This document shows, piece by piece, positions 23,928-42,562 of a stretch of 59,954 nucleotides of DNA (position 1 is the first letter of the stretch; each line of letters begins with the position of its first letter). Source of the stretch: an uncultured Clostridia bacterium (GTDB taxonomy: Bacteria; Bacillota; Clostridia; UBA1381); assembly GCA_947628155.1 (NCBI GenBank), contig CANQYQ010000001.1, forward strand, positions 1 to 59,954, read 5' to 3'. The notes below the pieces were generated by a model. That model was not told the DNA's origin. It searched no databases and worked only from the letters and a program-made list of their open reading frames with translations. A program made the position numbers and the translations under genes.

Positions 23928-23930
23928 TAT

Positions 23931-26856: not shown

Positions 26857-26865
26857 CTCATCCTC

Positions 26866-27624: not shown

Positions 27625-28142
27625 AACGGCATTTCCCCCTTCAGTATAACGGGGATCCCGTAAACCGCCTCGATCACGCAGTCCGCCATATCCGCGATAC
27701 GCGAATTGATCTTTCCGATATTTTTTATATACTCCATCGTTTGAGCTTCATATTTGATCCCGTCCGCGCCGACCTGACTTGTCACGATTATAAGCGCCTC
27801 CGCCATATCCGCGAGATGCTCGATCCCGCTTATGATCCTTATATCCGCGTCCGCTTGCCCCGCGCCCGAAAACATCTCGTTCGCCAACAGGTTCCCGATA
27901 CATTCTATCAGCACGGCGCATCCGGGCTCTATGTCCGCGCCGCCGATATCGGTATACCTCTCGATTGTAACAAATCCCTTTCCCGCGCGCATGTTTTTGT
28001 GACGCGCGATCGCCTCGCGCGCGTCCGCGCCGTAAGGAACCATGGCCGCGATATAAAAACGCGGCAAATTATACGATACCGCGATTTCCTCCGCGATTTT
28101 CGATTTCCCGTTTTTGCTTGCGCCCGTAATTAAAATAATCAT
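27621..28142 (-). CDS. cobU: adenosylcobinamide kinase / adenosylcobinamide-phosphate guanylyltransferase (divergent CobU)
   Basis: 173 aa. P-loop ITGASKNGKSKIAE, His-containing EAIARHKNMR segment, LIECIGNLLANEMF. ATGA overlaps with both cobT and cobS. Confidence 0.8.
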   Translation of the reverse strand: MIILITGASKNGKSKIAEEIAVSYNLPRFYIAAMVPYGADAREAIARHKNMRAGKGFVTIERYTDIGGADIEPGCAVLIECIGNLLANEMFSGAGQADADIRIISGIEHLADMAEALIIVTSQVGADGIKYEAQTMEYIKNIGKINSRIADMADCVIEAVYGIPVILKGEMPL

Positions 28143-29179
28143 AGCTCCATATACCTCTCCATCGGCAGCTCGCTGAATTTGTGCGCGCCGTTATATACCG
28201 CGAGCGCCCCGTCCAAAAGCGGCAGCAGCATCACACCGCCCGTACCCTCGCCGTAGCGCATATCCGCGCATATCACCGGTTTTAGTCCAATATATTCGAG
28301 GATTTTTCCGCCCGCCGACTCGCCCGATACATGAGACGCGAGCATGTAATGCTTCACCGGCGGATTTATTTTAACGGCGGCCGCCGCCGATACCGCTGAA
28401 ATAAACCCGTCGATAATAACCGGAATTTTATAAACCGCGCCGCCGAGGAACAACCCCGTCATACCCGCGATATCGAGTCCACCTATCTTCGCGGTAAGCT
28501 CCGCAGCTCTGTCCGCGTCGGGTGCGTTCACCGCTATCGCCCGCCTTATCACGTCGATTTTCCGTGCCAATCCCGCGTCGTCAAGGCCCGCACCGCGTCC
28601 GGTGACGCGTTCGGGCGGCAAATCAAGCAAAACGGACGCCATCGCCGACGCGGTCGTCGTATTGCCTATGCCCATTTCTCCCGCGATAATAATTTTCACA
28701 CCGCTAATCATTAAATCCCGGACAATATCCATACCCGCCGCAATCGCGCTCTCCGCCTCCGCTACGCTCATTGCCGGACCTCTTGTGATATTCGCCGTGC
28801 CATACCTCGTCTTTTTCCGCACCGTACCCGGCACATCCGTTATCATGCCGATATCTGCCGCCGTTACGCCCGCGCCGTATACATTCGCCAGCCGATTTAT
28901 TCCCGATACGCCGTCCGCGATCGACCTCGCGACAATTGCCGTCACCGCGCTGGTCGTCTGCGTTACGTTTTCCTCCGTCACGCCGTTGTCCGCGCACATT
29001 ATTACAGCTTCGCGGCGGTCGAGCCGGATGTTCTCGTCTCCGGTAATTCCGGAAATTTTTATGATCGCGTCCTCCAGCAGCCCAAGCCCGCGGATCGGCT
29101 TGGCCACATTGTTCCACCGCTTCCTCGCGCGGGTCATTGCCGCCGCGTCGGGCGGGGTAATTAATTTTATTCTTTCCAT
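28139..29179 (-). CDS. cobT: nicotinate-nucleotide--dimethylbenzimidazole phosphoribosyltransferase
   Basis: Start set at ATG 29179 (MERIKLITPPD; RBS GGGGAG). Motifs: ...KPIRGLGLLEDA..., GEMGIGNTTTASA, and C-terminal YGEGTGG, all typical of CobT. Confidence 0.92.
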   Translation of the reverse strand: MERIKLITPPDAAAMTRARKRWNNVAKPIRGLGLLEDAIIKISGITGDENIRLDRREAVIMCADNGVTEENVTQTTSAVTAIVARSIADGVSGINRLANVYGAGVTAADIGMITDVPGTVRKKTRYGTANITRGPAMSVAEAESAIAAGMDIVRDLMISGVKIIIAGEMGIGNTTTASAMASVLLDLPPERVTGRGAGLDDAGLARKIDVIRRAIAVNAPDADRAAELTAKIGGLDIAGMTGLFLGGAVYKIPVIIDGFISAVSAAAAVKINPPVKHYMLASHVSGESAGGKILEYIGLKPVICADMRYGEGTGGVMLLPLLDGALAVYNGAHKFSELPMERYMEL

Positions 29180-30621
29180 CTTGCGTACTCCCCGCATGTG
29201 TTTACAAAATTTACCGCCGTATCCGTATTTGCCCAAAAATGAAGATGGGGAAATCCCGCATACAGTGTCTTTGACGCGTGCGCGCATACATAATCGCCGC
29301 CGCGCGCTCTTTGCGCCGTAAACGCGCTGCCGCAGTCATAAGCGTTCCAGTAGTGGAACTCGCGCGAACGGATTTTTTCACCCCTTTTGCACAGAAGATT
29401 ATCCTCCCTCGCCGTCAGGGTAACGTACCCGAACCGCTGTAATTTATCAGTTTTGTACGCGTCGGTATCTATAACCCCGGCCATATCATACCGCCTTTTA
29501 TCCGCGCCCTCGAGCGTTTTACAAAGATACATAAATCCGCCGCACTCCGCTATCGTCGGCAGTCCGCCGTTAATTTTCGCTCTTATACCGTAAAGCATCG
29601 CCGTATTATCCGATAGAGCCGCCGCGTGAAGCTCCGGATATCCGCCGCCTATTATAAGTCCGCTTATGCCGTCCGGCAGTTTCTTGTCCGCAAGCGGTGA
29701 AAATTTTATAATTTCACATCCCAAAGAACGCAGCAAATCAAAATTATCCTCGTAGTAAAAGCAGAATGCTTTGTCATACGCGACAGCTATTTTAATCGGC
29801 CCGCGCGGCGGCATTGTACCGGGGACACTAAAATCGTCACACGCGCCTTTCGCGGAGCCGCTGAAATTGCCCGTCATCACGGGGACACTAAAATCGACGC
29901 CCGTTTTTGCATCGGGGACACTAAAACTCTCCGCCATGGGGACACTAAACCGCGCGCTTCCGGATTCGTTTGCGCAGCGGATCATATCGTCTATCCTAAG
30001 CGTTTTATCCGCCGTGCGGGCAAGAATATCAAGCTTTAATTGCAGGTTCTTGATTTCGTCCGCCGCGACAAGTCCGAGGCGGCGGCTTTCTATTGAATAT
30101 TCGGCGTTGTACGGCAAGTATCCGAAATATTGTGTGCCAAGCTCATCGCACATTTGCGCTGCCGCCGCTTCAAGGCTTTCGGGCAGCCGGTTAAAAATAA
30201 ATCCGGCGATGATGTTCGGCGTTTTGTACGTTAAAAACCCCTTCATCACCGCGCCTAATGATTCGCTCATACCCTTGCAGTCGATAACGATCACCGCCCG
30301 CGTTCCGGTACCGGCCGCCAGAGCGTGCGCCGAGGCCGTTCCGTTAACGCCGTCGTAGAAGCCCATGACCCCCTCGATCACGGAGATTTCGCCGGCGTTT
30401 TTTTGAAGCAGATAATTTACGGTGTTCTTATCGCACAGCCACGTATCAAGATTTCGCGATTTCGCGCCGATAACGCGGCTGTGGAACATCGGGTCGATAT
30501 AGTCCGGCCCGCATTTAAAGGCGGTAACGTCCATGCCGCGGTTTTTAAGCGCCTGTAAAACGGCGCATGTTACAGTCGTTTTGCCGCAGCCGCTGTGTGT
30601 GCCGGCGATCATAATTCTCAT
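29167..30621 (-). CDS. cbiA: cobyrinate a,c-diamide synthase, with an unusual FSVP-repeat insert in the interdomain linker
   Basis: Start set at ATG 30621 (MRIMIAGTHSGCGKTTVTCAVLQAL; ATGA overlap with the cbiET stop). The C-terminal GATase domain has AECGGFMYL. The insert is encoded by 29821-29949. Confidence 0.92.
   Translation of the reverse strand: MRIMIAGTHSGCGKTTVTCAVLQALKNRGMDVTAFKCGPDYIDPMFHSRVIGAKSRNLDTWLCDKNTVNYLLQKNAGEISVIEGVMGFYDGVNGTASAHALAAGTGTRAVIVIDCKGMSESLGAVMKGFLTYKTPNIIAGFIFNRLPESLEAAAAQMCDELGTQYFGYLPYNAEYSIESRRLGLVAADEIKNLQLKLDILARTADKTLRIDDMIRCANESGSARFSVPMAESFSVPDAKTGVDFSVPVMTGNFSGSAKGACDDFSVPGTMPPRGPIKIAVAYDKAFCFYYEDNFDLLRSLGCEIIKFSPLADKKLPDGISGLIIGGGYPELHAAALSDNTAMLYGIRAKINGGLPTIAECGGFMYLCKTLEGADKRRYDMAGVIDTDAYKTDKLQRFGYVTLTAREDNLLCKRGEKIRSREFHYWNAYDCGSAFTAQRARGGDYVCAHASKTLYAGFPHLHFWANTDTAVNFVNTCGEYARWKE
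29821..29949 (+). repeat. four same-strand copies of GGGGACACTAAA(A) inside cbiA
   Basis: Copies start at 29821, 29881, 29914 and 29938, with spacings of 60, 33 and 24 nt. On the coding (minus) strand each reads TTT AGT GTC CCC, which is F-S-V-P. Confidence 0.9.
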
Positions 30622-31814
30622 CGTCTGCCTCCTTGTATAATGAAGATTGGATTTTGCGCGTCCATCATCGTGTGATCGCCGATTTTTTTTGTTCGCGTAA
30701 CGGCAATTTGTATTATATCGCACGGCAGCCCAAGCGAACCGAACGCGGCGCGGCATTGTTCAAGCGTTTCAAGCGATATTGCCGGCGCGGCGATTTGAAC
30801 GCGCGGATTTTTTCGGAATGCCGCGTTTATTACCTCGCCGATCTCACCGCCCGAGCCGCCGATAAACACGCGGTCGGGAGCGGGAAGTGAGGATATCGCC
30901 AAAGCCGCGTCGGAATGCAATATTTCAATGTTGTCGCACCCAAATTTTTTTCGGTTTTCATCTGTAAGCCTGACAGCTTCATCGCTTTTATCGATCGCGT
31001 AAACCGTGCCGTCGGAGCAGCGCAGCGCCATTTCGACGGAGACAGAGCCGGTGCCGCAGCCGATATCCCAGCAAATATCGGTTTGCCCTATGCCGAGCTT
31101 CGACACGCAAACCGCGCGTATTTCCGATTTTGTCATAGGAACGCCGCCGCGTATAAATTCGCCGTCCGGTATGCCTGTTCTCACTCCGTGCTCATAATCG
31201 GGATTTTCCACGAGCAGCACGCATAAATTATCGGTTTTTTCGTTGACAAAATCCGCCGCTTTGCCCGTTAAAATCCGTTCGTTTTCCATAGCTAAATTTT
31301 CACCTATGCGGATTTTTACATTTTCCATGCCGTATTCGCAAAGCCGTGCGCAGACGGCGGCGGCGGTTATACTGCCGCCGAGCAGGAAAAAGGTCAATTT
31401 ATTCGCGCGTACGCCGCGTGCGATGTTGGCCGTTTTCCCGTGCAGACTGATGAATTTTGCGTTTTGCCACGGCAGCCTGAGTTTTGCGAGGAAATATGAC
31501 GGAGAGGAGATCCCGGGTATAATTTCAACATCATAACGGGACAGACGGTCGGCAAGCCCGTCCGCGCCGCTGTAGAAGCCGGTGTCGCCGGACATAGCTA
31601 CCGCGATATTTTCATATCCGCAGCCGAATATATATTCCGCGATCTCGTCTTGCTTATATGATTCGAACGTCGGCTTGCCTGTAATCGCGAGCATATCAAT
31701 AACGCGCCGCGCGCCTATTATGACCTCCGCGGCGGTCAGCGCGGAATTTGCCGCGGCGGTCAGCGCCGCGTGCCCGTCCATGCCGACGCCGATAATTTTA
31801 ATTTGCTTGCCCAT
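30618..31814 (-). CDS. cbiET: cobalt-precorrin-7 C5-methyltransferase / cobalt-precorrin-6B C15-methyltransferase (decarboxylating), fused CbiE-CbiT
   Basis: 398 aa. The N-terminal tetrapyrrole methylase domain has IKIIGVGMDG and SGDTGFYSG. The C-terminal SAM methyltransferase domain has DIGCGTGSVSVE. Confidence 0.9.
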   Translation of the reverse strand: MGKQIKIIGVGMDGHAALTAAANSALTAAEVIIGARRVIDMLAITGKPTFESYKQDEIAEYIFGCGYENIAVAMSGDTGFYSGADGLADRLSRYDVEIIPGISSPSYFLAKLRLPWQNAKFISLHGKTANIARGVRANKLTFFLLGGSITAAAVCARLCEYGMENVKIRIGENLAMENERILTGKAADFVNEKTDNLCVLLVENPDYEHGVRTGIPDGEFIRGGVPMTKSEIRAVCVSKLGIGQTDICWDIGCGTGSVSVEMALRCSDGTVYAIDKSDEAVRLTDENRKKFGCDNIEILHSDAALAISSLPAPDRVFIGGSGGEIGEVINAAFRKNPRVQIAAPAISLETLEQCRAAFGSLGLPCDIIQIAVTRTKKIGDHTMMDAQNPIFIIQGGRR

Positions 31815-32553
31815 TGTATTCCTCCAGAAGCTGTTTTGCTTTGTTTACGTCTATTCCGTCTTCGGCCGGGCGCGTAATGATGAGCGCCGTAACGCCAAGC
31901 TCCTTTGAGGCGGCTATTTTTTCGTCATAGCCGCCGAGCCTGCCGCTGTCCTTTGTCACGATGAATTTTGCGCCCGCTCGCCTCAGATGCGCGATATTTT
32001 TCCGAATTGAAAACGGCCCTTTTTCGGCGATGATTTTATCAAAGCCGTACGCGGCGCATTTTTCGTAAATTCCGTCCGCGTCCAGTACGCGTACCGTGCA
32101 CCGCAGGGAAAAGCCGTTTACGGCGCGAAAGCGCGGAAGCTCCTTGCTGCCTGTCGTCAGCAGTATATTTCCGCCGTGATTATTCAGATACTCGACCACG
32201 GATGGGATATCGTTAAAAAAAATCCCGTCGCCGCGCTTTGCCGTCGTTTCGCGCAGTACGCGGATATATGCCGCGCCCGTTTGAGAACATGCCCGCCGTA
32301 TATTTTCCGTTGCCTCGACCGCATACGGATGAGTCGCGTCAAAAACCGGATCGATATCGTTTTTCGCGATAAATTCCGCCATTTCCGCGGCCGTTTTCCG
32401 TCCCGTTACGGCGTGTATATACGGTGATTTTATAAGCTGCGCCGCGCCGTAGTCCGTAGCCGAGCTCACATACGCGCCGATACGCTTTTTTGCGCAGAAC
32501 CGCGCTAGCTGCCCCCCTTCGGCAGTACCGCCGAAAATCAGTATTTTACACAT
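31798..32553 (-). CDS. cbiJ: cobalt-precorrin-6A reductase
   Basis: Start set at ATG 32553 (MCKILIFGGTAEG). THPYA motif (DATHPYAVEAT) and C-terminal TKDSG are typical of CbiJ/CobK. Confidence 0.88.
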   Translation of the reverse strand: MCKILIFGGTAEGGQLARFCAKKRIGAYVSSATDYGAAQLIKSPYIHAVTGRKTAAEMAEFIAKNDIDPVFDATHPYAVEATENIRRACSQTGAAYIRVLRETTAKRGDGIFFNDIPSVVEYLNNHGGNILLTTGSKELPRFRAVNGFSLRCTVRVLDADGIYEKCAAYGFDKIIAEKGPFSIRKNIAHLRRAGAKFIVTKDSGRLGGYDEKIAASKELGVTALIITRPAEDGIDVNKAKQLLEEYNGQAN

Positions 32554-33274
32554 TTTTATATCCTCTCGGCGTAACCATTCTTCCGTTGATAATTTTCGTC
32601 TCACCGCTGCCGATAAATACGGTCGTGAACATATCCGCGTCAGCGGAGCTTAGTTGCTCAAGCGTAAGTATGCGTGCCGTTTCGCCGTCTCTGCCGATAT
32701 TTTTCACTATGCCGCAGACGGTGGTTTTATCACGGTATTCAAGCAGAATCTCACAGGCGCGGGCAAGGTGAGTTTTCCGCTTGCTTGACGCGGGATTGTA
32801 CAGCGCGATTGCGAAGCCGCCCCGCGCCGCCCCGCGCAGACGCTGTTCGATCACGTTCCGAGGCGTAAGCAAATCGGATAGGCTGATGACCGCGAAATCG
32901 TTTGTCAGCGGCGCGCCCAAAAGCGCCGCGCCGCTTAACGCCGCCGTGACGCCAGGTATAATCTCGACCTCGGCGCCGGGATATTTTTGCGCAAGCGAGA
33001 GCGCGGGCGAGGCCATGCCGTAAACTCCCGCGTCGCCGCTGCAGACCAAAGACACGGTTTTGCCGCCCGCCGCCGCGTTAAACGCAAGCATAATGCGTTT
33101 GCGTTCGCCGCGCATGGGTGTGGTTATAAATTCCTTATTGGGAAAAATTCGTCTCACAAGCTCCGCGTAAACGGTGTATCCGACTATGATATCGCTTTTT
33201 TCAAGCGCCGCTCTCGCGGCAATCGTCATCCCGGCTTCGCCGCCCGGACCTATTCCGACTATATACAGCTTCAT
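32546..33274 (-). CDS. cbiH: cobalt-factor III / precorrin-3B C17-methyltransferase
   Basis: MKLYIVGIGPGG..., SGDAGVYGMA, IIPGVTAA are tetrapyrrole methylase motifs. Its position next to cbiG fits CbiH. Confidence 0.92.
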   Translation of the reverse strand: MKLYIVGIGPGGEAGMTIAARAALEKSDIIVGYTVYAELVRRIFPNKEFITTPMRGERKRIMLAFNAAAGGKTVSLVCSGDAGVYGMASPALSLAQKYPGAEVEIIPGVTAALSGAALLGAPLTNDFAVISLSDLLTPRNVIEQRLRGAARGGFAIALYNPASSKRKTHLARACEILLEYRDKTTVCGIVKNIGRDGETARILTLEQLSSADADMFTTVFIGSGETKIINGRMVTPRGYKNV

Positions 33275-34285
33275 CTATAATTCCCTCGCAAAATCAATAA
33301 GTACATCCTCCTCGGCCGCCGCGAAGGTCATGCCGCCGCGCGCCGTTTTTTTGATGATTATCCTCCCGCCGCCGCAGACAGCGGCTCTTTCGCATACGTT
33401 ATCCGTGCCGGTGATTTTTTTCACAAATTCCGAGCCGATAAATTCACCCGGCGCGGCGTTTAATTCACGCGCCGAATGAAATATGAGCGGAATTTTATTT
33501 TTTCGGCAAAATTCAATAACGGCAGGCTCGTCCTTTTTTAAATCTATCGTATGCACTCCGCCTATTCTGTAAAGCGGCAGATTATTCTGAGCCATGGTAT
33601 CCCGTATAAATTCCGAAAGCCTTTTGGGATCTGTGCCGCGCTTACAGCCTATGCCGACGGAAATGTTTTTCGGAATGAGCCGCAGCGTTATATCAAACGG
33701 TTTTTTATCCTCGCGGCCTATGTAAATCCCGACCCGCGTGTTTTTGCCGAAATATTGCTCCGGTATGTTTATTGCCGTATGATCGCATACAAGACCGATT
33801 TTTTCACCGTCCAGAACCGCCGCCGCGATTTCCTTTGCCGCGCTCACATCGCTTATATGAAGGCTGTTAGCCATGGCAAAGCTGTCGGGAGAAAATTTGC
33901 CGCCGGAATCAGTAGCGGTTGTTATCACCGGAACCGCCCCGATAATTTGGGCGATTTTTTTCGCGAGTGCGTTCGCGCCGCCGACGTGGCCGGACAAAAT
34001 CGGCACGGCGAATCTGCCGGAATCGTCGATTACGATTACAGCCGGGTCGGTCATCTTCGACACGATATGCGGCGCGGCGGCGCGGACGGCGATCCCGCAC
34101 GCGCAGATGAAAACCAGCGCGTCGTATTTTGAAAATATATCGCCTACAAGCTTTTTTAAATCGGAAAAGACCTCCGCGCCGTCCGCGTGCTTGTAAAACA
34201 TATAACGCTCACATTCGATTGAGTCAGCAATTTTTCGTGATAATTTTCCGCCGTTTTCCGTGATTGAAATAATAGCCGCTTTCAT
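33275..34285 (-). CDS. cbiG: cobalt-precorrin-5A hydrolase
   Basis: 336 aa. ...LVFICACGIAVRAAAP...VIVIDDSGRFAVPILSGHVGGAN... and C-terminal VGIGCKRG are CbiG N- and C-domain signatures. Confidence 0.9.
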   Translation of the reverse strand: MKAAIISITENGGKLSRKIADSIECERYMFYKHADGAEVFSDLKKLVGDIFSKYDALVFICACGIAVRAAAPHIVSKMTDPAVIVIDDSGRFAVPILSGHVGGANALAKKIAQIIGAVPVITTATDSGGKFSPDSFAMANSLHISDVSAAKEIAAAVLDGEKIGLVCDHTAINIPEQYFGKNTRVGIYIGREDKKPFDITLRLIPKNISVGIGCKRGTDPKRLSEFIRDTMAQNNLPLYRIGGVHTIDLKKDEPAVIEFCRKNKIPLIFHSARELNAAPGEFIGSEFVKKITGTDNVCERAAVCGGGRIIIKKTARGGMTFAAAEEDVLIDFAREL

Positions 34286-35037
34286 CCTTCCGCCTTCCTG
34301 AACCCTGTTTCAAAACCCGCGTCATAGAGCCTTGAGAGCAAATGATCATTGCCCAGAAAATTCCCGACGCATATAAGCGCGGTTTTTGTTATGCCGTGCT
34401 CCTTTGCCGTTTTATCAAGTGTATCCACCGTGCAGCGGCATATTTTCTCATCCCTCCATGTCGCCTTGTACACGATCGCCGCGGGTGTGTTTTTATCATA
34501 GCCGCCGCGGATCAATTCCTCGGACAGCATGCGCGTTTTTGCCGCGCTTAAAAATATAACCATAGTCGCGTTATGCGCGGCAAGCGCGGCTATGCTCTCG
34601 CGTTCAGGTACGCTTGTCCGTCCCGCCGCGCGCGTTATGATAACCGTTTGTGATACTCCGGGAAGCGTGTATTCCGCCTTCAAGGCTGCCGCCGCGCCGC
34701 TCAACGAGCTTACGCCCGGGCATATTTCATATTCTATGCCGAGATTGTTAAGCGCGTCCGCTTGCTCGCGTATCGCTCCGTAGAGCGATGGGTCGCCCGA
34801 GTGAAGCCGAACCGTCATTTTGCGCGCGGCTTCGGCGCGCGTTATAACATTAATTACATCGTCAAGCGTCATAAACGCGCTGTTGTGAATTTCGCAGCCC
34901 GGTTTTGCGTATTTAAGCAGCTCGGGGTTTACAAGCGAACCGGCGTAGATTATAACGTCCGCGTCCGCGATAAGCCTCGCGCCGCGTATAGTTATCAAAT
35001 CGGTCGCGCCGCAGCCCGCGCCAACAAAATTAACCAT
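34282..35037 (-). CDS. cbiF: cobalt-precorrin-4 C11-methyltransferase
   Basis: MVNFVGAGCGATDLITIRGARLI...RLHSGDPSLYGA...ICPGVSS are CbiF/CobM motifs. Confidence 0.93.
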   Translation of the reverse strand: MVNFVGAGCGATDLITIRGARLIADADVIIYAGSLVNPELLKYAKPGCEIHNSAFMTLDDVINVITRAEAARKMTVRLHSGDPSLYGAIREQADALNNLGIEYEICPGVSSLSGAAAALKAEYTLPGVSQTVIITRAAGRTSVPERESIAALAAHNATMVIFLSAAKTRMLSEELIRGGYDKNTPAAIVYKATWRDEKICRCTVDTLDKTAKEHGITKTALICVGNFLGNDHLLSRLYDAGFETGFRKAEG

Positions 35038-36166
35038 TGTATTCCTCCGTGATTTTTTGTATCATCTCCGCCGCTTCGGGTGTTTGACCTATTACGCCGA
35101 ATTTGTCCGAAAACACCAGCGCCCCAGTTTTTATATTTCCGTTCGCGCGCAAGCCGAGATAATACCGTATACGGCTCATGAGGATTTTTGATGTTTTATC
35201 CAAGATCCCCGCGTCCTTGATAATCGACAGGGCGGCGTCGGCGGTCGCGCAGCCGGGGATCTCCCTTAGAGCTTCGATCTCCGCGCCCGCCATTAGTGCG
35301 CACGTGACAAGCACGTCCATTCGCGCGTCGCCGCGCGACGAATGCGTGTTCATAATTCCCGCGCCCAGCTTTACAAGCTTGCCGATATGTCCGACAATTA
35401 GCGCGCCGCCGAAACCGAGTTCTGCCGCCGTATCGATCGCCTCACCGATGAAATTGGAGCATGTAACACATTTCCCGGCAGCGAACGGCATATGTGTTTT
35501 CAAAAAGCCGCTGCCGTAATTCCCTATTGTGAGAACAAGGTTTTTTATTCCCTCCGCGCGGCGCATTTTCATTTCCGTACGCATCGTTGCGATAATGGCG
35601 TCATTGCTCATCGGCTCGACAATACCGGTCGTGCCGATAATTGAAATGCCGCCTGTTATGCCCATGCGGGGGTTATACGTTTTTTCCGCGGCGCGCGCGC
35701 CGCCGGGGACGAAAATCGTTATTTTTATTCCGCCGGTGTAATTATTTGCCGCGCATTCTTCCGCGACCGCCTCGGTTATCATTTTTCGCGGTACGCTGTT
35801 AATGGCTGCCGCGCCGACCGGCTGGTCGAGTCCGGCTTTGGTGACGATGCCCACGCCTTCGCCGCCATGTATTTCTATACCGTGCGTGGATTTTTCGGCC
35901 CGCGCGTATATAAGCAGACCGTCCGTGGCGTCGGGATCGTCGCCGCCGTCTTTTCTGACGGCGCATACGGCGCCGTTATCGGAAATGTACGCGTCGGAAA
36001 TATCAAGCGACAATGGTATGCCCTTCGGCGTGATAAGCACGGCGGAATCGGGGAATTTGCCGCCTAAAAGCGCGGCTGCCGCCGCCTTTGCCGCCGCGGC
36101 CGCGCATGAGCCGGTCGTGTATCCGCGGCGCAGCCGCTTGCCGTATTTGTATATGTAATTATCCAT
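35030..36166 (-). CDS. cbiD: cobalt-precorrin-5B C1-methyltransferase
   Basis: ...LRRGYTTGSCAAAAAKAA...GGDDPDATDG...GIVEPMS... is the typical CbiD pattern. 378 aa. Confidence 0.93.
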   Translation of the reverse strand: MDNYIYKYGKRLRRGYTTGSCAAAAAKAAAAALLGGKFPDSAVLITPKGIPLSLDISDAYISDNGAVCAVRKDGGDDPDATDGLLIYARAEKSTHGIEIHGGEGVGIVTKAGLDQPVGAAAINSVPRKMITEAVAEECAANNYTGGIKITIFVPGGARAAEKTYNPRMGITGGISIIGTTGIVEPMSNDAIIATMRTEMKMRRAEGIKNLVLTIGNYGSGFLKTHMPFAAGKCVTCSNFIGEAIDTAAELGFGGALIVGHIGKLVKLGAGIMNTHSSRGDARMDVLVTCALMAGAEIEALREIPGCATADAALSIIKDAGILDKTSKILMSRIRYYLGLRANGNIKTGALVFSDKFGVIGQTPEAAEMIQKITEEYNG

Positions 36167-36218
36167 TGTTATGACCTTTATGGGAAATTTTAGTTTTGGG
36201 CCGTACAGACCGATAAAT

Positions 36219-36863
36219 TCATCTCTTAGTGTCGTGTATCATATACAGCAGAGAGTTGCATATCGCGGCGGCGACGGGGCTGCCGCCCTTTCTGCCGTTT
36301 GACACGATATACGGCGCGCCGCTCGCTTTAATCAGTTCCTTTGCCCGCGTGACGTTCACGAATCCAACCGGCACGCCAATCACAAGCGAGGGGGAAATGC
36401 CGCCGCTCTGTGTGAGACCGCGCAGGCGAATGAGCGCTGTCGGGGCGTTGCCTACGGCGAAAATTATATTCTTGTTCCCGTAAAGCTTTGCCGCCTTGTC
36501 CATGGCCGCGGCGGCGCGCGTGGTTCCGTTTGCCGCCGCCCGCTCCGCCACGTCGGGATCGGCCATGAAGCAGTGCGCCTCGCAGTTAAGCGAATATAGC
36601 GCGCGTTTGTTTATGCCGGACAGCGCCATATTCGTGTCAGTCACGATAACCGCGCCGCTTTGTAATGCGGCGATGCCGCGTTTTACGGCATTTTCGGAAA
36701 ACTCCAGGCTTTTAACATAATCAAAATCGGCGGTTGTGTGAATAACGCGCTTGAGCACGGTTCTTTCCGTATCCGTAAGCCACGGTGTTTCGCCTATTTC
36801 CGATTCAATTATTTCCATGCTCCGCCGTTCAATATCGGCGGGACGGATATTTTCAGCTTTCAT
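36219..36863 (-). CDS. cbiC: cobalt-precorrin-8 methylmutase
   Basis: ...VIHTTADFDY..., FAVGNAPTAL, GVPVGFV and GGSPVAAA are CbiC/CobH hallmarks. 214 aa. Confidence 0.93.
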   Translation of the reverse strand: MKAENIRPADIERRSMEIIESEIGETPWLTDTERTVLKRVIHTTADFDYVKSLEFSENAVKRGIAALQSGAVIVTDTNMALSGINKRALYSLNCEAHCFMADPDVAERAAANGTTRAAAAMDKAAKLYGNKNIIFAVGNAPTALIRLRGLTQSGGISPSLVIGVPVGFVNVTRAKELIKASGAPYIVSNGRKGGSPVAAAICNSLLYMIHDTKR

Positions 36864-37395
36864 TTGACCGTTTCCTTTTCCAAATAAATATTACCGCCGC
36901 CAAGACCGCGATTACCGCGGCAGCCGCCGCAATCGCCGCCGGAATCGCGGCCTTCCTGCCAAACGCATTCTTCGGCAGGCCGGATGATTCAAACACAAGC
37001 GTCCTGTCGTACCATTTTTGCTTTTTTATACTCCACGCGGCGCAGTCGATTTCCGTGTCGAGTGCTTCGACCGGAACGGTGTATGTATATTTGCCGCCGC
37101 TGTTTTCGGTGAAATATATACATTCGCTGTCGGGAGCGGCGGACGCTTCAGCGCCTGTGCCCATAAACAGCTTTTCATAGCCCTTGCCGCTTAATGTCAT
37201 TGCCGCCCGCATTTTTCCGCCGGCGATGGTAAGAGTGCAGTCCGCTATACGAAACATCGATGAGCTTGATGTTACGGTAATAGGGTATTCGCCGTCGTTA
37301 AGCTCATCGGCGTATATCGGCCGCTTTTGCGCCGCTATGCATACGGATTGCAGCATCAGCAGCGCCGCGCACAGGCATAATATGATTTTTTTCAT
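36853..37395 (-). CDS. hypothetical exported, C-terminally membrane-anchored protein (paralog of 41789-42211)
   Basis: Start set at ATG 37395 (RBS GGAGGAG). Signal peptide MKKIILCLCAALLMLQSVCIAAQ, a soluble domain of about 120 aa, then a C-terminal TM (AAIPAAIAAAAAVIAVLAAVIFIW) and a basic tail (KRKRSNES). Confidence 0.65.
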   Translation of the reverse strand: MKKIILCLCAALLMLQSVCIAAQKRPIYADELNDGEYPITVTSSSSMFRIADCTLTIAGGKMRAAMTLSGKGYEKLFMGTGAEASAAPDSECIYFTENSGGKYTYTVPVEALDTEIDCAAWSIKKQKWYDRTLVFESSGLPKNAFGRKAAIPAAIAAAAAVIAVLAAVIFIWKRKRSNES

Positions 37396-37475: not shown

Positions 37476-37930
37476 AACGCCCGCCGTATACGAAATCAAT
37501 CACTTGCGCCCCTTGTTAAAGGGGGAGGCTAACGCCCGCCGTATGCGATTTTCGCTCACGGGAACGCTCTGCTTGCGCCCCTTGTTAAAGGGGAGGCTAA
37601 CGACCGCCATGTGCAATTTCGCTCACGGGGACGCTCTGCTTGCGCCCCTTGTTAAAGGGGAGAGGGCCAACGAAGTTGGCGAGGGGATTCCGCAATCACA
37701 CCAAATCGCTGCAATATGCGATATTTTGCAAAAATGAATCCCTCCGTCATTTGCTCCCTGCGGTCGCAAATGCCACCTCCCTTTGACAAGGGAGGCTAAC
37801 ACTCGCCGTATGCGAAATCACTCACGGGGACGCTCTGCTTACGCCCCTTGTTAAAGGGGAGGCTAACGCCCGCCGTATTCCATATCGTGTTACGGAACAC
37901 GGGCGGCCGATGGCCGCCCCTACGGTGTTT
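37476..37930. repeat. mosaic intergenic repeat cluster inside the cob supra-operon (same family as 19641-20076)
   Basis: Four copies of a 60-70-bp unit, TTGCGCCCCTTGTTAAAGGGGAGGCTAACGCCCGCCGTATGCGA...CTCACGGGGACGCTCTGC, start at 37504, 37573, 37640 and 37849. One MITE-like unit (about 37640-37798) carries the GGGGATTCCGCAAT...GAATCCCTCC core. The terminal hairpin GGGCGGCCGATGGCCGCCC is the reverse complement of 19856-19876. Confidence 0.8.
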
Positions 37931-37960: not shown

Positions 37961-38860
37961 CTATTTCCCCGACGCGGCGATTGCGTCGGCGACATGGTTT
38001 ACATAAATCGTCTGAATTTCCGGAAATTCGCCCATACCGCTCAATACGCATTCAACATCGAAGCCGGCCTTTTCAAACTCAGTTTTCCAGGAGCCGTCCT
38101 CGTCGCCGGCCATATCGTTATTGGCATGGTCGCCGGCGACGACCATGAGCGGTTCAAGCACAACCTTTTTATAGCCTCCGGCCTTTACTGCCGCTATCGT
38201 ATCTTCAAGCGTCGGAGTCGATTCGACCGTGCCGATAAAATAATTGCTTTGGCCCTTGCCGGTAAACTCTTGCTGAAGCTTTGTATATGCCTCATTCGCT
38301 TCATGCTCCGTGCCGTGACCCATAAATACGATTGCCGTTCCGTCTGAATTATACTGTGATGTTTCGGCAGTGAGCGCGTCCGCGACCGCGCTGTAGTCCT
38401 TATCGGAGGACAGGAGCGGTTTGCCCATAACGATCGTGTCGAATGAATCCTTGTACGAATCCGCCGCGGCCGCCAAATCATCATATTCAAATCCGCTCAT
38501 AACATGCGTCGGCTGAACGACGACGTCCTTAACCCCATCGGCGGCAAGTCTGTCGAACGCCTCCTCAACATTGTCAATCTCGAGCCCGTCGCGCTCCTTC
38601 AGCTTGTCGATTATGATTTGACTTGTAAACGCGCGGCGGACGTCATAGTCGGGGTACGCGTCCGAGATTGCGTTTTCAACGGCGCCGATGGTTTTATCGC
38701 GGCTGTCGTTATAGCTTGTGCCGAAGCTTACGACGAGAATAGCGGGTTTTTCACCGCCCGCCTCGGCGCCGGGATCATCGGCTGTTTGCTGCCCGCCGCA
38801 GCCCGATAATGCAAGCGCTCCCAAAAGAACGGAGCAGATAAGTAATTTCTTGGTTTTCAT
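37961..38860 (-). CDS. cbiK: CbiK-type sirohydrochlorin cobaltochelatase homolog with a lipoprotein signal peptide (extracytoplasmic)
   Basis: MKTKKLLICSVLLGALALSGC is a lipobox, followed by a low-complexity linker. The CbiK fold signatures are ILVVSFGTSY, VVQPTHVMSGFEY, FMGHGTEH and LMVVAGDHANND. Both catalytic-type His residues are present. Confidence 0.85.
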   Translation of the reverse strand: MKTKKLLICSVLLGALALSGCGGQQTADDPGAEAGGEKPAILVVSFGTSYNDSRDKTIGAVENAISDAYPDYDVRRAFTSQIIIDKLKERDGLEIDNVEEAFDRLAADGVKDVVVQPTHVMSGFEYDDLAAAADSYKDSFDTIVMGKPLLSSDKDYSAVADALTAETSQYNSDGTAIVFMGHGTEHEANEAYTKLQQEFTGKGQSNYFIGTVESTPTLEDTIAAVKAGGYKKVVLEPLMVVAGDHANNDMAGDEDGSWKTEFEKAGFDVECVLSGMGEFPEIQTIYVNHVADAIAASGK

Positions 38861-38875
38861 AATAATGTCTCCTTT

Positions 38876-39628
38876 TTAATTTTTAAAATATTGTGCGTAC
38901 AAATCACGCGGCAGGCCGAATAATCCGCATAAAACATCGGGAGTGAAAATATCCGGCGGCGCGCCCGCCTTGAATATTCCGCCGTTTTTTATACAAATTG
39001 TATAATCGGAAATTATCCTTGCCATGTCAAGCTCATGTATTGATACGACCGCCGCGATTTTTTCATCATTCACAAGCGCGCGGAGCGTTTCCAGAAACGC
39101 GATTTTGTGGTGAATGTCAAGATATGAGGTCGGTTCGTCGAGAAGCAGGATCTTCGGTTCTTGACATATCGCTTTCGCGAGCATCACCCTTTGCCGCTGC
39201 CCGTCGCTTATTTGCGAAAAATCCGTGTCCGCAAAGTCTGCGGTTTCGGTTGCAAAAATCGCTTTATCGACAGCGCGTTTATCGTTTTGTGTAAGCCGCC
39301 CCAGCCGTCCCGTGTGCGGATAGCGTCCCGTTTCCACAACCTCACGGCAGGTCATAAGCTCCGCTCCGACACGCTCCGTAAGCATCACGGCAAGCTGCTT
39401 GGCGCGCTCGTTCGGCGTGATGCGTTCCGCGCCGCGTCCGTTAATAAGCACCGTTCCGCCGCGTTTTTTTAGCGTTCCGGCAAGCGTTTTTAAGAGAGTG
39501 GATTTGCCCGAGCCGTTAGGCCCGATAACAGTCATTATTTCGCCGCCGTCTACGCTGAAGGAAATATGCGACGCGACTGTGTGAGAATAGCCGATCGCTA
39601 AATCCCGAACCTCAAGATATTTTGTTAT
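38876..39628 (-). CDS. ABC transporter ATP-binding protein (FepC/BtuD-type) with an apparent non-canonical ATA start
   Basis: Walker A GPNGSGKST, signature ISDGQRQR, Walker B ILLLDEPTSYLD. The reading frame is open back to 39628, and the N-terminal ITKYLEVRDLAIGYSH...ISFSVDGGEIM segment is required for an NBD. The only in-frame ATG (39535) sits just before Walker A. AGGAGGG lies 6 nt upstream of ATA 39628. Confidence 0.75.
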   Translation of the reverse strand: MTKYLEVRDLAIGYSHTVASHISFSVDGGEIMTVIGPNGSGKSTLLKTLAGTLKKRGGTVLINGRGAERITPNERAKQLAVMLTERVGAELMTCREVVETGRYPHTGRLGRLTQNDKRAVDKAIFATETADFADTDFSQISDGQRQRVMLAKAICQEPKILLLDEPTSYLDIHHKIAFLETLRALVNDEKIAAVVSIHELDMARIISDYTICIKNGGIFKAGAPPDIFTPDVLCGLFGLPRDLYAQYFKN

Positions 39629-40629
39629 ACTCTATCCCTCCTTTGTCTGAGCATGGCGGCGATCACCGCCGGCGCTCCGAAAATTGCCGTGACCGTGCTT
39701 ATACTAAGCTCCGTCGGCGCGAATGCCGTCCGAGATATTAAATCGCACAGCATACAGAATACGCTGCCGCCCAAGAAGCACGACGGTATGAGAACGACCG
39801 GCTTTGATGTTTTAAGCGCCGTCCTCACAATGTGCGGCACTGCTATGCCGACGAATGAAATCGGCCCGGCGAACGCCGTAACGCATGCCGACAGCAGTCC
39901 GGAAAGAAGTATAAGCGCGGCGCGGAGCGGCTTGATTCTTACGCCTAAATTTTGCGCGTAGCTTTCTCCCAGACGATATGCGCCTATCGGTTTTGCCAAA
40001 AGTAGCGTGAGCGCCAATCCGGACGCCGTGACGACGGCGCTCGCCCGTACATTGTCCATATTCATGCCGGAAAACGTGCCCAGCGACCAGCTGCGAAGAT
40101 TGACTATATCGGAATCCGCCGCGAAGGTTACGACGAAATCGGTCATCGCCGAGCAAATATAGCCTATCATTACGCCGCATACCACAAGCGTTGACATTGA
40201 GCCGACGCTGCGTGATACCGTAAGCACCAATGCCAGTGACGCGAGAGAGCCGATAAACGCGGCGCTTATTAACGCGCCCGATGTGAGCGCGGCGCGGCTT
40301 TCAGCCGCCGCGACCATTATAAGCGCGACAGTGAGCTTCGCGCCGGAGGATACGCCGAGCACAAACGGTCCGGCTATGGGGTTACGGAAGAACGTCTGCA
40401 AAAGATATCCGGACAGGGACAGCGCCCCGCCCAATATAAGCGCGGCCATTGCGCGCGGCACGCGGATCTTCATAATTATATCCGACGCGGTATCCGCGCC
40501 GCCGCGAAATAATATTTTTAATGCTTCCGCCGGTGATATGTCCGCGCCGCCTATCGTGAGATTTAGATACAGCGCGGCCAGCAGGGCGGCGCTTAACACT
40601 GTAAATACGGCGGCGTATCTTAGCTTCAT
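39625..40629 (-). CDS. FecCD-family ABC permease (BtuC-like)
   Basis: 334-aa polytopic protein with a typical FecCD pattern (...RVPR..AALILGGALSLSG...QTFFRNPIAGP...GPISFVGIAVPHI.R). Confidence 0.9.
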   Translation of the reverse strand: MKLRYAAVFTVLSAALLAALYLNLTIGGADISPAEALKILFRGGADTASDIIMKIRVPRAMAALILGGALSLSGYLLQTFFRNPIAGPFVLGVSSGAKLTVALIMVAAAESRAALTSGALISAAFIGSLASLALVLTVSRSVGSMSTLVVCGVMIGYICSAMTDFVVTFAADSDIVNLRSWSLGTFSGMNMDNVRASAVVTASGLALTLLLAKPIGAYRLGESYAQNLGVRIKPLRAALILLSGLLSACVTAFAGPISFVGIAVPHIVRTALKTSKPVVLIPSCFLGGSVFCMLCDLISRTAFAPTELSISTVTAIFGAPAVIAAMLRQRRDRV

Positions 40630-41792
40630 TTGACATCGCTCCTCTCAAGCCGAAACAGATATACGGGCGGATGACTTTCGGTATCGCCGGCGAAGACCGC
40701 GCGAAGATCCTCCAATACCGCGCCGAGATCCATCGTTTCCTGATACAGACTTTCGCGGGTGCACCATACATCCCCGGTACGGACGGCTTTGAAATCCGCG
40801 AGAAGCTCATTTTTCGCAATCATTTCATCAATTGAGTGCACCTCGCCGCCTATTGTGCTGTTGTATATTATAATATCCGCGTCCTTGGCCGTTTTGTAAA
40901 ATTCCTCCGGCTCAAGCTTGATAGTGGATAACCGGTCGTCGTTTTCGAGATGGGTAAATACATTGCGGCCGCCCGCCATTTCCATCATCCGTGATACGTA
41001 GTCGCTTGATTTGCGGGTCACGGCTTGTCCGCTGCCGTTTATGTAAAAGAACGCGGCGGTTTTTCCGGTGTCGGCGCACGACGCCGCCTCAAGCCGCTCC
41101 GCCTGTTCCTTCATCAGTATATCGGCCTTATCCGCCTCGTCTAAAATTTCGGCATATACGCGGATCCACTCGCTTCGCCCGAGCGGGTGCGTTTCGTAGC
41201 TTGAATAATCGGTGAGCACGGTTATCCCCAAATCCTCCAGCTTCTCCTTTACATCGGGCGCGTAGTCGATCATTGTGGACTGTATCGATAAATCACAGCC
41301 GTTTGTAAGCAGCATTTCGTAATCCGGCGCGCTGTAATTGCCGGCGTAGAGCATATCGCCGCTCTCCATCGCCCTTCGCGCGTAATCGATGTACCATTCG
41401 TCCGCCTCGGAACCGGAAAATTTAATCGCATTGCCGCGCCCGAGCGAGTCGAACAAATCCATTGCGGCGGTGGCGGCAAGGTATATATTGCCTATCGGAC
41501 GATTGATTATTTTTATGTCATCGTCGATCCCGTCCGGCGCGCCCGCGCCCTCGGGAACAATTAAGAACCGATCTCCGTTCCCGATATAGATCATGGAATA
41601 TCCTTCATCGCAGCGGTCAATTGTAAATTGCTCCGCATATGCCGTACAGACTCGTTCGGTAAATCGTATGCCGTCAATTTCATAAGGGATTTCGGGAACT
41701 CCGCGTTTCGGCGCGCATCCAAATAAGGTCATTATGCCGAATATGAGCGCGGCTTTGCATAATAAAGCCGCCGTTGTTTTTATTATTTTCAT
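40626..41792 (-). CDS. ABC substrate-binding lipoprotein (class III periplasmic-binding fold, BtuF/FhuD-like)
   Basis: Start set at ATG 41792 (ATGA overlap with the upstream stop). Signal/lipobox MKIIKTTAALLCKAALIFGIMTLFGC. Its position upstream of the FecCD permease and ATPase fits this role. Confidence 0.85.
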   Translation of the reverse strand: MKIIKTTAALLCKAALIFGIMTLFGCAPKRGVPEIPYEIDGIRFTERVCTAYAEQFTIDRCDEGYSMIYIGNGDRFLIVPEGAGAPDGIDDDIKIINRPIGNIYLAATAAMDLFDSLGRGNAIKFSGSEADEWYIDYARRAMESGDMLYAGNYSAPDYEMLLTNGCDLSIQSTMIDYAPDVKEKLEDLGITVLTDYSSYETHPLGRSEWIRVYAEILDEADKADILMKEQAERLEAASCADTGKTAAFFYINGSGQAVTRKSSDYVSRMMEMAGGRNVFTHLENDDRLSTIKLEPEEFYKTAKDADIIIYNSTIGGEVHSIDEMIAKNELLADFKAVRTGDVWCTRESLYQETMDLGAVLEDLRAVFAGDTESHPPVYLFRLERSDVK

Positions 41793-42211
41793 TTTGAGCG
41801 TCTCCGTTTCATCCAAACCGCGGCTGCCGCGATAATTACGGCCGCCGAAATCCCGCCGATAAGAATGACGTTCGGCGCGGTATCCGCGGCCTTGATCGAG
41901 GCGCTGTCGAACCGAAGCGAATATTCAATCATATGCGGCTCGCTCATAGCCGTTGTTTCGGCGAGCACGGGAATATCCGTATCCGCCGCCGGGATCTCCA
42001 CCTTAAACCGCGAATTTCCGCCCGTATTTATGGGATAATATCCGTGCCCGTCTATTTCCATATAATCATAATTCGGGCTGCTCCATTCAATCACGGCGGC
42101 CGCGCGGCCGTCCTTGATTTCCATATCCGCGGGAGATTTTATTTGTGCCCTTCCGCTGCCGCCGGTCAGTGTTACATCAATTGTATAGCTGCCGTCCGCT
42201 GAATTTTCCAT
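41789..42211 (-). CDS. hypothetical C-terminally membrane-anchored protein, first gene after the B12 riboswitch (paralog of 36853-37395)
   Basis: Start set at ATG 42211 (RBS GGAGGA). MENSADGSYTIDVTLTGGSG... has no recognisable signal peptide. C-terminal TM VILIGGISAAVIIAAAAVW plus a basic tail MKRRRSK. Confidence 0.6.
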   Translation of the reverse strand: MENSADGSYTIDVTLTGGSGRAQIKSPADMEIKDGRAAAVIEWSSPNYDYMEIDGHGYYPINTGGNSRFKVEIPAADTDIPVLAETTAMSEPHMIEYSLRFDSASIKAADTAPNVILIGGISAAVIIAAAAVWMKRRRSK

Positions 42212-42270
42212 AATATGATCCTCCAAAATAAAAACGCCTTTACCATAAGTAAAAGCGCAGCAAAAAACAC

Positions 42271-42300
42271 ATCCGCGAAATACGGATTTTTCCGGGTGTA
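42271..42300 (-). terminator. candidate riboswitch expression-platform terminator
   Basis: On the minus strand: AAAAATCCG-tatttcg-CGGAT-gtg-TTTTTT, between the B12 box and the first start codon. Confidence 0.45.
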
Positions 42301-42321: not shown

Positions 42322-42520
42322 TTTCGTACCGAACAAAGGGCAGGTCTCCCGGCTCATACATCAGGCGTTTCAAAAGAGCCTTCCCGGTTTTACCCAGTGG
42401 CGTAATTCTCCGAAACTACGTAATCACGGTGACGAGTTCGCGCGGGATTTTCACCCGCTTCCCTTTTCACCTGAACCAACTCCGGAAACTCCGGAATCTC
42501 AGGCACCCTTCGTCATTATT
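42322..42520 (-). promoter_or_regulatory. cobalamin (B12) riboswitch
   Basis: The minus strand reads ...GGTTCAGGTGAAAAGGGAAGCGGGTGAAAATCCCGCGC...GCCACTGGGTAAAACCGGGAAGGC...GAGCCGGGAGACCTGCC. These are the conserved GGUGAAAAGGGAA / GUGAAAAUCC core and a B12 box (AGCCGGGAGACCTGCC). Confidence 0.88.
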
Positions 42521-42533
42521 TAATTGTGAATGT

Positions 42534-42562
42534 ATTATACCACACGATCCGAAAATTGTCAA
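42534..42562 (-). promoter_or_regulatory. consensus sigma-A promoter driving the riboswitch and cob supra-operon
   Basis: On the minus strand: TTGACA (42562-42557), a 17-nt spacer, TATAAT (42539-42534). Confidence 0.65.

Follow-up and report, generated by a model that had tools for sequence, protein, structure and literature searches.

The stretch of DNA analysed here (hereafter the window) covers 59,954 nucleotides of contig CANQYQ010000001.1 from an uncultured Clostridia bacterium, and contains, within a cluster of B12 genes, a gene for a homologue of the cobaltochelatase CbiK. Judged from its sequence, this CbiK is a predicted lipoprotein, i.e. an exported, membrane-tethered and extracytoplasmic class II chelatase of the CbiK family. 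It is encoded together with two proteins of NEAT-like fold (anchA and anchB), a substrate-binding lipoprotein and the permease and ATPase of an ATP-binding cassette (ABC) importer. On balance, we lean towards the view that this module is a surface relay which captures a tetrapyrrole precursor from outside the cell and feeds it by import, probably once cobalt has been inserted at the surface, to a truncated cbi pathway.

The open reading frame (ORF) of CbiK codes for 299 residues, of which the first are MKTKKLLICSVLLGALALSGCGGQQTADDPGAEAGGEKPAILVVSFGTS, and its N-terminus (MKTKKLLICSVLLGALALSGC) was followed by a linker rich in Gly, Ala, Glu and Pro. A lipoprotein signal was defined as a positively charged n-region and a hydrophobic core followed by the pattern [LVI][ASTVI][GAS]C. 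Sequence inspection identified all three parts, namely the n-region MKTKK, the core LLICSVLLGALA and the lipobox LSGC with Cys21, and the lipoprotein-processing enzyme Lgt was encoded in the same genome (G000:C7, 236 bits). The start codon was preceded by a strong ribosome-binding site (AGGAG, 8 nt 5' of the ATG). No ATG, GTG or TTG occurred in frame between Cys21 and beta-strand 1 of the domain (ILVVSFGT), the next Met being found only at about residue 121, within the chelatase domain. A start codon further downstream was thereby ruled out: owing to the lack of in-frame starts before the domain, the signal cannot be lost by re-calling the start and belongs to any full-length product. Homologues were searched among 5.8 billion proteins, which yielded thousands of CbiK sequences, the best 120 being 55-72% identical to that of the window. 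A lipobox was detected by motif scan in 106 of these 120, the exceptions being fragments, mis-called starts or tandem CbiK-CbiK proteins, and the lipobox Cys was retained in 104 of the 107 full-length members of the clade that could be aligned. The initial annotation had described a CbiK homologue endowed with a lipoprotein signal, a linker and both active-site His contexts, and the ORF, the lipobox and the motifs FMGHGTEH and VVAGDHANND were indeed all observed. Its own reservation, that the true start might lie past the lipobox or that orthologues might be devoid of a signal, was dispelled by the absence of an alternative start and by the retention of the Cys.

Family membership was unequivocal. 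The Pfam model CbiK (PF06180) matched residues 40-294 with 300.1 bits against a cut-off of 26.2, over profile positions 2-261 of 262, and the protein could be aligned along the full length of both Salmonella CbiK (1qgo) and Porphyromonas gingivalis FetB (9b86). Residues His182, Glu213 and His245, corresponding to the catalytic and metal-binding residues His145, Glu175 and His207 of 1qgo, were invariant in 107 of 107 clade members, and 93 columns of the alignment of these 107 homologues were at least 95% identical. The equivalog model for sirohydrochlorin cobaltochelatase (NCBIfam NF047852) was matched with 269.8 bits, below its cut-off of 400. Bit scores against Salmonella CbiK (192), FetB (189) and the periplasmic CbiK(P) of Desulfovibrio vulgaris (157) do not seem to favour a special kinship with either FetB or CbiK(P). 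Furthermore, the position of the axial haem ligand of CbiK(P), His96, is occupied by Asp in the window protein (FEYDD versus EEFHG). In a quick maximum-likelihood tree (IQ-TREE) built without FetB, CbiK(P) and Salmonella CbiK, a long branch divided the lipoprotein clade from Firmicute CbiKs that have no signal (Shimodaira-Hasegawa-like approximate likelihood ratio test, SH-aLRT, 100).

Several deviating architectures were encountered within this clade. At its base, locus L113 (G074:C185:2590-3348) coded for a signal-less CbiK beside cbiL, a protein that has either reverted secondarily to the cytoplasm or preserved the condition ancestral to the clade. Some exported CbiKs (L024:10635-11777, L122, L123 and L125) formed a sub-group sharing a conserved insertion, about 90 residues long, that separates the lipobox from the domain (AKLIDAIYVQERTDETD...DPDYFGRDTGDA), and in genome G273 (L124) a far larger N-terminal extension was found, as well as four NEAT-like domains. 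Matches of PF25290 to some long homologues were sub-threshold and spurious, the proteins in question being tandem CbiK-CbiK.

The two partner proteins anchA and anchB are paralogous, hhalign matching them with a probability of 99.6% and an E-value of 2e-23. When anchB was modelled with AlphaFold from a 20-sequence alignment, the model reached a predicted local distance difference test (pLDDT) value of 90.4 and displayed the eight-stranded beta-sandwich of NEAT domains. Nearly all of its top 40 Foldseek matches in the PDB were haem-binding NEAT or Shp proteins (IsdX1, IsdX2, Hbp2, IsdA, IsdC; best E 1.9e-4). A second structural search (VIA-align) gave Z-scores of 10.2, 9.4 and 9.0 to the NEAT domain of Hbp2 and to IsdC, the top 10 being exclusively NEAT/Shp before a drop to Z 5.4. 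The Pfam model NEAT (PF05031) matched neither anchA nor anchB of the window, and relatives attained only E-values of 0.012 and 0.043 (14.7-16.5 bits against a cut-off of 32.8). Likewise, the canonical YxxxY haem-ligand motif was absent, the aligned strand reading KWYDR in anchB and HMIEY (HxxxY) in anchA. Both proteins are NEAT-like by fold yet lie outside the Pfam NEAT family as defined. In the window's genome, anchA has a C-terminal membrane anchor with a KRRRSK tail and no N-terminal signal peptide. The same signal-less form with a C-terminal helix and basic tail was found in genomes sharing the window's gene order (L028, L031, L033, L041 and L076). Orthologues elsewhere are lipoproteins; in the signal-less form, a domain of about 110 residues would have to get to the outside without an N-terminal signal peptide. 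The predicted complex between mature CbiK and the anchB domain scored 0.09 against a mark of 0.32, a value that speaks neither for nor against binding.

Conservation of the module was evaluated by scanning one genome per GTDB species. A close relative of this CbiK was found in at least 507 species, and 80 loci were examined. An anchB homologue directly followed the lipoprotein CbiK in 79 of the 80 loci and anchA adjoined the module in 71. In most of them anchA, binding protein, permease and ATPase either came next or were arranged in the order seen in the window, which was reproduced exactly in genome G236. Gene fusions were frequent: CbiK-anchB fusions occurred in at least 11 species, anchB-anchA fusions in many, anchA-binding-protein fusions in at least six and tandem CbiK-CbiK proteins in four. 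A cobalamin riboswitch lay directly upstream of the module in all seven other species tested, hence in eight out of eight with the window. Cultured carriers included Roseburia yibonii BX0805, Lachnoclostridium sp. An14 and strains 1XD42-1, 1XD21-13 and DFI.7.65. Among sequencing runs, the window's locus was listed for DNA from rabbit-gut metagenomes, probably the sample of origin, and for no RNA run. The lipoprotein CbiK was missing from the four same-genus genomes (G001-G004), one of which was 99% complete, indicating that presence of the module varies within the genus.

Whole-genome searches of the window's genome (G000, 86% complete) detected no CbiX, cbiL, cobA, hemB, hemC, CobN or SirC-like gene, and no second chelatase beyond a divergent CbiK-like paralogue of 314 residues with altered catalytic positions. 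In two relatives of 97% completeness (G025 and G236), the exported CbiK was likewise the only one, and hemB, a true cobA and cbiL were absent. In four others, 99-100% complete (G114, G265, G221 and G273), again only an exported CbiK was found, hemB and a true cobA being absent and cbiL present. Thus, cbiL was lacking in three of the seven exported-CbiK-only genomes checked (G000, G025 and G236). The sole match of the cobA model in G265 fell below the family cut-off and was located between cbiL and cbiH, so that it most likely corresponds to cbiF. Incompleteness of the metagenome-assembled genome was ruled out as a cause of the missing early pathway, since the same pattern was observed in six genomes that were 97-100% complete. 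Two further genomes combined an exported with a signal-less CbiK: G015 (97% complete), in which hemB, cobA and cbiL were present, and G244 (100% complete), in which cobA was present.

The paralogue of 314 residues (G000:C95:7168-7764; L002:1498-2442, minus strand) has an N-terminal region resembling a membrane helix, and its catalytic positions are altered, reading GKGTAHH and, where DH would be expected, DA. Its neighbours are a radical-SAM-like gene and a sirtuin, with no B12 context, and it was kept in all four genomes of the same genus, which seem to be without the B12 cluster.

A wider set of 50 module genomes was reached via the loci and is of unknown completeness. In this set, cbiH was found in 50 genomes, hemB in 23, cobA in 27 and cbiL in 33. 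Of the 50, 17 also had a cytoplasmic chelatase, either a signal-less CbiK in addition to the exported one (15 genomes) or a CbiX encoded separately, and all 17 genomes lacking cbiL fell among the 33 without a cytoplasmic chelatase (Fisher p 1.3e-4, not corrected for phylogeny). CobN was detected in two of the 40 searched genomes with an exported CbiK only. In a set of 53 module genomes to which G000, G015 and G025 belonged, CbiM, a component of the energy-coupling factor (ECF) cobalt transporter, was found in nine. Its scarcity was considered as a sign that outside cobalt insertion dispenses with cobalt import, and was discarded as uninformative because CbiM was also missing from full de novo producers.

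Distribution within the class was assessed on 199 genomes, balanced by family and all of 95% completeness or more. The ring-contraction gene cbiH occurred in 39 of these 199 genomes (20%), as against 50 of the 50 module genomes. An exported-type CbiK was found in six of the 39 cbiH-positive genomes and in none of the 160 cbiH-negative ones (Fisher p 4e-5, not corrected for phylogeny). The module therefore follows ring synthesis and not B12 auxotrophy. An importer of finished B12 would be expected to be commonest among ring auxotrophs. The module occurs only with the ring-contraction enzymes, and where the exported CbiK is the sole chelatase, the steps making its substrate have been lost. Read most simply, the module would provide this substrate from outside.

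These data also bear on two statements of the initial annotation. It had conceded that an extracytoplasmic role would fall if the genome held no other chelatase and the pathway worked with this gene in the cytoplasm. No other chelatase was indeed found, but hemB, hemC, cobA and cbiL, i.e. the early steps on which a cytoplasmic chelatase would depend, were missing too, and an early pathway was likewise lacking in near-complete relatives. Absence of the early pathway here and in these relatives favours extracellular handling of a tetrapyrrole over a cytoplasmic role. The annotation's suggestion of a role in extracellular corrinoid, cobalt or tetrapyrrole handling is accordingly reinforced by the clade-wide signal, the separate clade and the missing early pathway.

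Under precursor salvage, anchA, anchB, the lipoprotein CbiK, the binding lipoprotein and the BtuCD-like ABC importer would jointly acquire an external tetrapyrrole. The likeliest cargo would be a B12 precursor from the early, isobacteriochlorin stage (sirohydrochlorin type or factor II/III type) or a cobalt complex thereof. CbiK may insert Co2+ at the cell surface, or may bind the cobalt complex and hand it on. Through the importer, the metallated ring would enter a cytoplasmic cbi pathway which begins at CbiH (at CbiL in relatives) and which includes neither precursor synthesis nor a chelatase. An abundance of B12 would cause the riboswitch to turn the whole system off. A bolder version, which we put forward tentatively and hold to be rather less than probable, is that hundreds of gut and rumen Clostridia insert cobalt outside the cell into a metal-free isobacteriochlorin (sirohydrochlorin or factor II/III) leaked by their neighbours and caught by the NEAT-like relay, ring and metal being imported together by a dedicated ABC system into a cbi pathway from which all steps before CbiL or CbiH have been lost. 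It is possible, with the same reserve, that this amounts to an undescribed cross-feeding of early B12 intermediates, which would answer the puzzle of corrin pathways devoid of precorrin-2 synthesis.

A number of observations weigh against precursor salvage. The cargo is wholly a matter of inference, as are the site and direction of metal insertion and the order of hand-off. Genomes devoid of cbiL would need an intermediate already methylated at C20 (factor III or cobalt-factor III), and it seems unlikely that such a compound is abundant in the gut. Nine of the 50 module genomes possess hemB, cobA and cbiL together but no cytoplasmic CbiK or CbiX, and a simple salvage model fails there. A further 17 of the 50 are full producers with a cytoplasmic chelatase of their own, in which the module could at most be accessory. 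For permease and ATPase alike, the best-scoring models are of the B12 type, and plain corrinoid importers are also typically under B12-riboswitch control. Additionally, the 50 genomes derived from loci are of unknown completeness and the co-occurrence statistics carry no correction for phylogeny. As for the nearest biochemical precedent, FetB displayed no reverse (metal-removing) activity and its substrate was a porphyrin analogue, not sirohydrochlorin (PMC13065792). The required C20 methylation, the nine genomes with hemB, cobA and cbiL but without a cytoplasmic CbiK or CbiX, and the inferred cargo are the reasons why we only lean towards precursor salvage.

Among other explanations, the module could be a Gram-positive counterpart of Bacteroides BtuG/H/J, in which complete cobamides, cobinamide or cobyric acid are bound by the NEAT-like proteins and CbiK and then handed over to the BtuFCD-type importer. 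We consider this unlikely, even though control by a B12 riboswitch, best models corresponding to the BtuC permease and a corrinoid ATPase, and the presence of the module in full producers as well would all be accounted for. Surface lipoprotein relays for cobamides are moreover established in Bacteroides (PMC13616437). A chelatase pocket is also naturally suited to a cobalt tetrapyrrole, and CbiK would then be a binder and not an enzyme. Against this, its three catalytic residues are all invariant. Auxotrophs would gain most from such capture, yet none of about 160 cbiH-negative genomes of high quality had the module and all 50 carriers had cbiH. Genomes with only the exported CbiK retain cbiH-cbiC, yet corrinoid capture would leave these enzymes without a substrate that the cell can provide. 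Restriction to ring-synthesising genomes would equally be expected if the system acquired cobalt only, with CbiK as a surface Co2+ metallochaperone or carrier loader and the importer supplying cobalt for ring synthesis. B12-regulated cobalt transporters are typical of cbi clusters (PMC7689651), and CbiM was found in just nine of 53 module genomes. This last count is uninformative, CbiM being missing from full producers too. Furthermore, NEAT folds and type II importers take large planar chelates rather than free ions, and both the source and the metallation of the ring would be left unexplained in genomes without hemB, cobA and a cytoplasmic chelatase. Acquisition of cobalt alone is in our opinion improbable.

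The NEAT fold could also evoke acquisition of haem or iron of the Isd or Iht type, the NEAT-like proteins catching haem and CbiK removing or exchanging its metal, all the more so since IhtB/FetB and CbiK(P) were originally described as haem binders. However, a cobalamin riboswitch and not an iron regulator controlled eight of eight loci, the module was located within or linked to cbi genes, the His96 ligand of CbiK(P) is replaced by Asp, anchB has no YxxxY motif and anchA has HxxxY instead. FetB itself was reported without iron chelatase or reverse activity (PMC13065792), so that we hold a haem or iron system to be very improbable. Even less credit can be given to an ordinary cytoplasmic, biosynthetic CbiK, whose signal would be an annotation artefact or which would act inside the cell as a signal-less isoform. 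Such an enzyme would fit with the sole chelatase of G000, and with the signal-less L113 protein at the base of the clade, beside cbiL. It is contradicted by the lack of an in-frame start before the domain, by the lipobox in 104 of 107 homologues, by the additional, separate signal-less CbiK in G015 and in 15 of 50 module genomes, and by a score of about 270 bits against the NCBIfam equivalog cut-off of 400. Lastly, G000 could not make the substrate of CbiK.

The closest known case is IhtB/FetB of P. gingivalis, from the ihtABCDE locus (PDB 9b86), and the module is a Gram-positive, NEAT-assisted and B12-switched counterpart of that system. FetB is likewise an exported lipoprotein of the CbiK family, and its gene is accompanied by those for the binding protein, permease and ATPase of an importer (PMC12094164); the window CbiK could be aligned to it from the signal peptide onward (189 bits). 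As in the exported paralogues CbiK(P) and IhtB/FetB, the window protein has an export signal on a complete CbiK domain, and an ABC importer is encoded next to it. FetB inserts cobalt and manganese into a porphyrin analogue in vitro, an extracytoplasmic chelatase activity, and is required for extracellular production of Mn-protoporphyrin (PMC13065792); its chelation of Co and Mn outside the cytoplasm is a precedent for chelation at the surface. According to Shelton et al. (PMC6461909), in the passage citing Roper et al. 2000, P. gingivalis has a corrin pathway without precorrin-2 synthesis. Unlike the present system, FetB is an outer-membrane lipoprotein of a Gram-negative organism and has the TonB receptor IhtA as a partner, in place of which the window has two NEAT-fold proteins and no outer membrane. 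Work on FetB has moreover dealt with its role in haem, iron and Mn-porphyrin handling and not with B12 supply.

CbiK(P) of D. vulgaris (PDB 2xvx, 157 bits) is another signal-bearing paralogue with the same catalytic residues, which coexists with a cytoplasmic CbiK. In contrast with the window protein, it is soluble in the periplasm rather than lipid-anchored and binds haem via His96, replaced here by Asp. To our knowledge, CbiK(P) has no NEAT partners. Passage from surface NEAT domains to a binding lipoprotein and a type II ABC importer, as proposed here, is a feature of the Isd, IsdX and Hbp relays of Staphylococcus, Bacillus anthracis and Listeria. The similarity of anchA and anchB to these is sub-Pfam, they are held at the membrane through a C-terminal helix or a lipobox and not attached by sortase, and YxxxY is absent; in addition, the window module is under a B12 riboswitch and includes a chelatase in the relay. 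Salmonella CbiK (1qgo), a sirohydrochlorin cobaltochelatase, was the best solved match (192 bits, residues 38-294). Unlike the window CbiK, which scores below the equivalog level and belongs to a separate, strongly supported clade, it is cytoplasmic and has no signal.

At the level of gene content, module genomes resemble the tetrapyrrole precursor salvagers of Shelton et al. 2019 (PMC6461909), which kept corrin-ring enzymes and are missing early precursor genes. Dependence of such salvagers on an external precursor was demonstrated for 5-aminolaevulinic acid (ALA), the uptake route not being named (PMC6461909). In the present genomes, the losses reach as far into the pathway as cobA, the chelatase and, in some cases, cbiL, and a far more elaborate precursor than ALA would consequently be needed. 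In the literature searched, no paper was found in which NEAT domains are linked to cobalamin, or in which an exported CbiK of Gram-positives or the module itself is described, and a 2026 review presents surface capture of cobamides in Firmicutes as uncharacterised (PMC13616437).

Genome-based predictions of B12 producers in gut communities score CbiK as biosynthetic, usually without regard to the location of the protein. If the sole chelatase is extracellular and the pathway starts from CbiH or CbiL, such Clostridia would not be independent producers and would rely on an intermediate made by others. An uncharacterised uptake route for early tetrapyrrole intermediates would then exist, models of cobamide cross-feeding would change, and an explanation would be at hand for the class of "incomplete" pathways of which P. 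gingivalis provided the first example in 2000. The ligands of NEAT-type relays would also come to include a cofactor besides haem. As several cultured isolates carry the module, the idea can be put to a direct test.

Features of the locus are collected in Table 1. As stated in the initial annotation, cbiK is the sole chelatase-type gene of the cluster, according to the Pfam and NCBIfam scans, and it is under the B12 riboswitch, which leads tightly coupled genes as far as cbiK. The statement that cbiK lies between the importer and cbiC was correct as to placement, with the qualification that a repeat cluster and the exported gene anchB also intervene before cbiC.

Table 1. Features of the module and of the adjoining B12 genes in the window
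Feature	Position	Strand	Remarks
Sigma-70-type consensus promoter	42534-42562	minus	TTGACA-17 nt-TATAAT; putative, read from sequence
Cobalamin riboswitch aptamer	42322-42525	minus	RF00174, 103.5 bits, E 7.7e-25, full-length match
Short hairpin and T-run	42262-42290	minus	likely terminator of the riboswitch expression platform, inferred from sequence
anchA	41789-42211	minus	140 residues, NEAT-like; GGAGG then ATG at 42211, past the riboswitch terminator
Substrate-binding lipoprotein (Peripla_BP_2)	40626-41792	minus	PF01497, E 3.3e-28
FecCD/BtuC-type permease	39625-40629	minus	Pfam FecCD, E 1e-75
ABC ATPase	38876-39628	minus	opens at ATA 39628, overlapping the permease stop
Lipoprotein CbiK	37961-38860	minus	299 residues; signal peptide with lipobox LSGC (Cys21), then a linker and an entire class II chelatase domain
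Cluster of 60-70-bp repeats, about 430 bp	37504-37930	not assigned	between cbiK and anchB
anchB	36853-37395	minus	180 residues; signal peptide, NEAT-fold domain, C-terminal membrane anchor
Truncated cbi/cob operon	21937-36863	minus	Pfam and NCBIfam assignments

The binding protein probably starts at ATG 41792, overlapping the anchA stop codon (ATGA), and its N-terminus MKIIKTTAALLCKAALIFGIMTLFGC includes a lipobox; it had no NCBIfam match and no close or informative solved relative. The best NCBIfam model of the permease was BtuC (198 bits, cut-off 334), and the corrinoid ABC ATPase model (220 bits, cut-off 537) matched the ATPase, when read from 39628, from its fourth residue onwards. Permease, ATPase and binding protein hence all remained below an equivalog-level BtuFCD match, in a locus that does carry a cobalamin riboswitch. 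The ATPase gene has no canonical start: ATAA is found where coupled genes usually have ATGA, with AGGAGGG 8 bases before it (39625-39640). The GC-rich repeat cluster consists of four to five copies, and a simple scan of 37504-37930 revealed no minus-strand promoter or terminator; cbiK and anchB are adjacent or fused in other species.

The cbi/cob operon comprises cbiC, D, F, G, H, J, ET and A, cobT, U and S, cobC-cbiB, cobD, cbiP and cobO; cbiL, cobA, sirC, hem genes and a cytoplasmic chelatase were all absent from 21937-36863. Positions 24956-26581 are occupied by one ORF of 541 residues uniting a CobC-type phosphatase domain with CbiB, which is either a true fusion or an assembly frameshift. 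The cluster adjoins Spo0A, which points to a spore-forming Firmicute.

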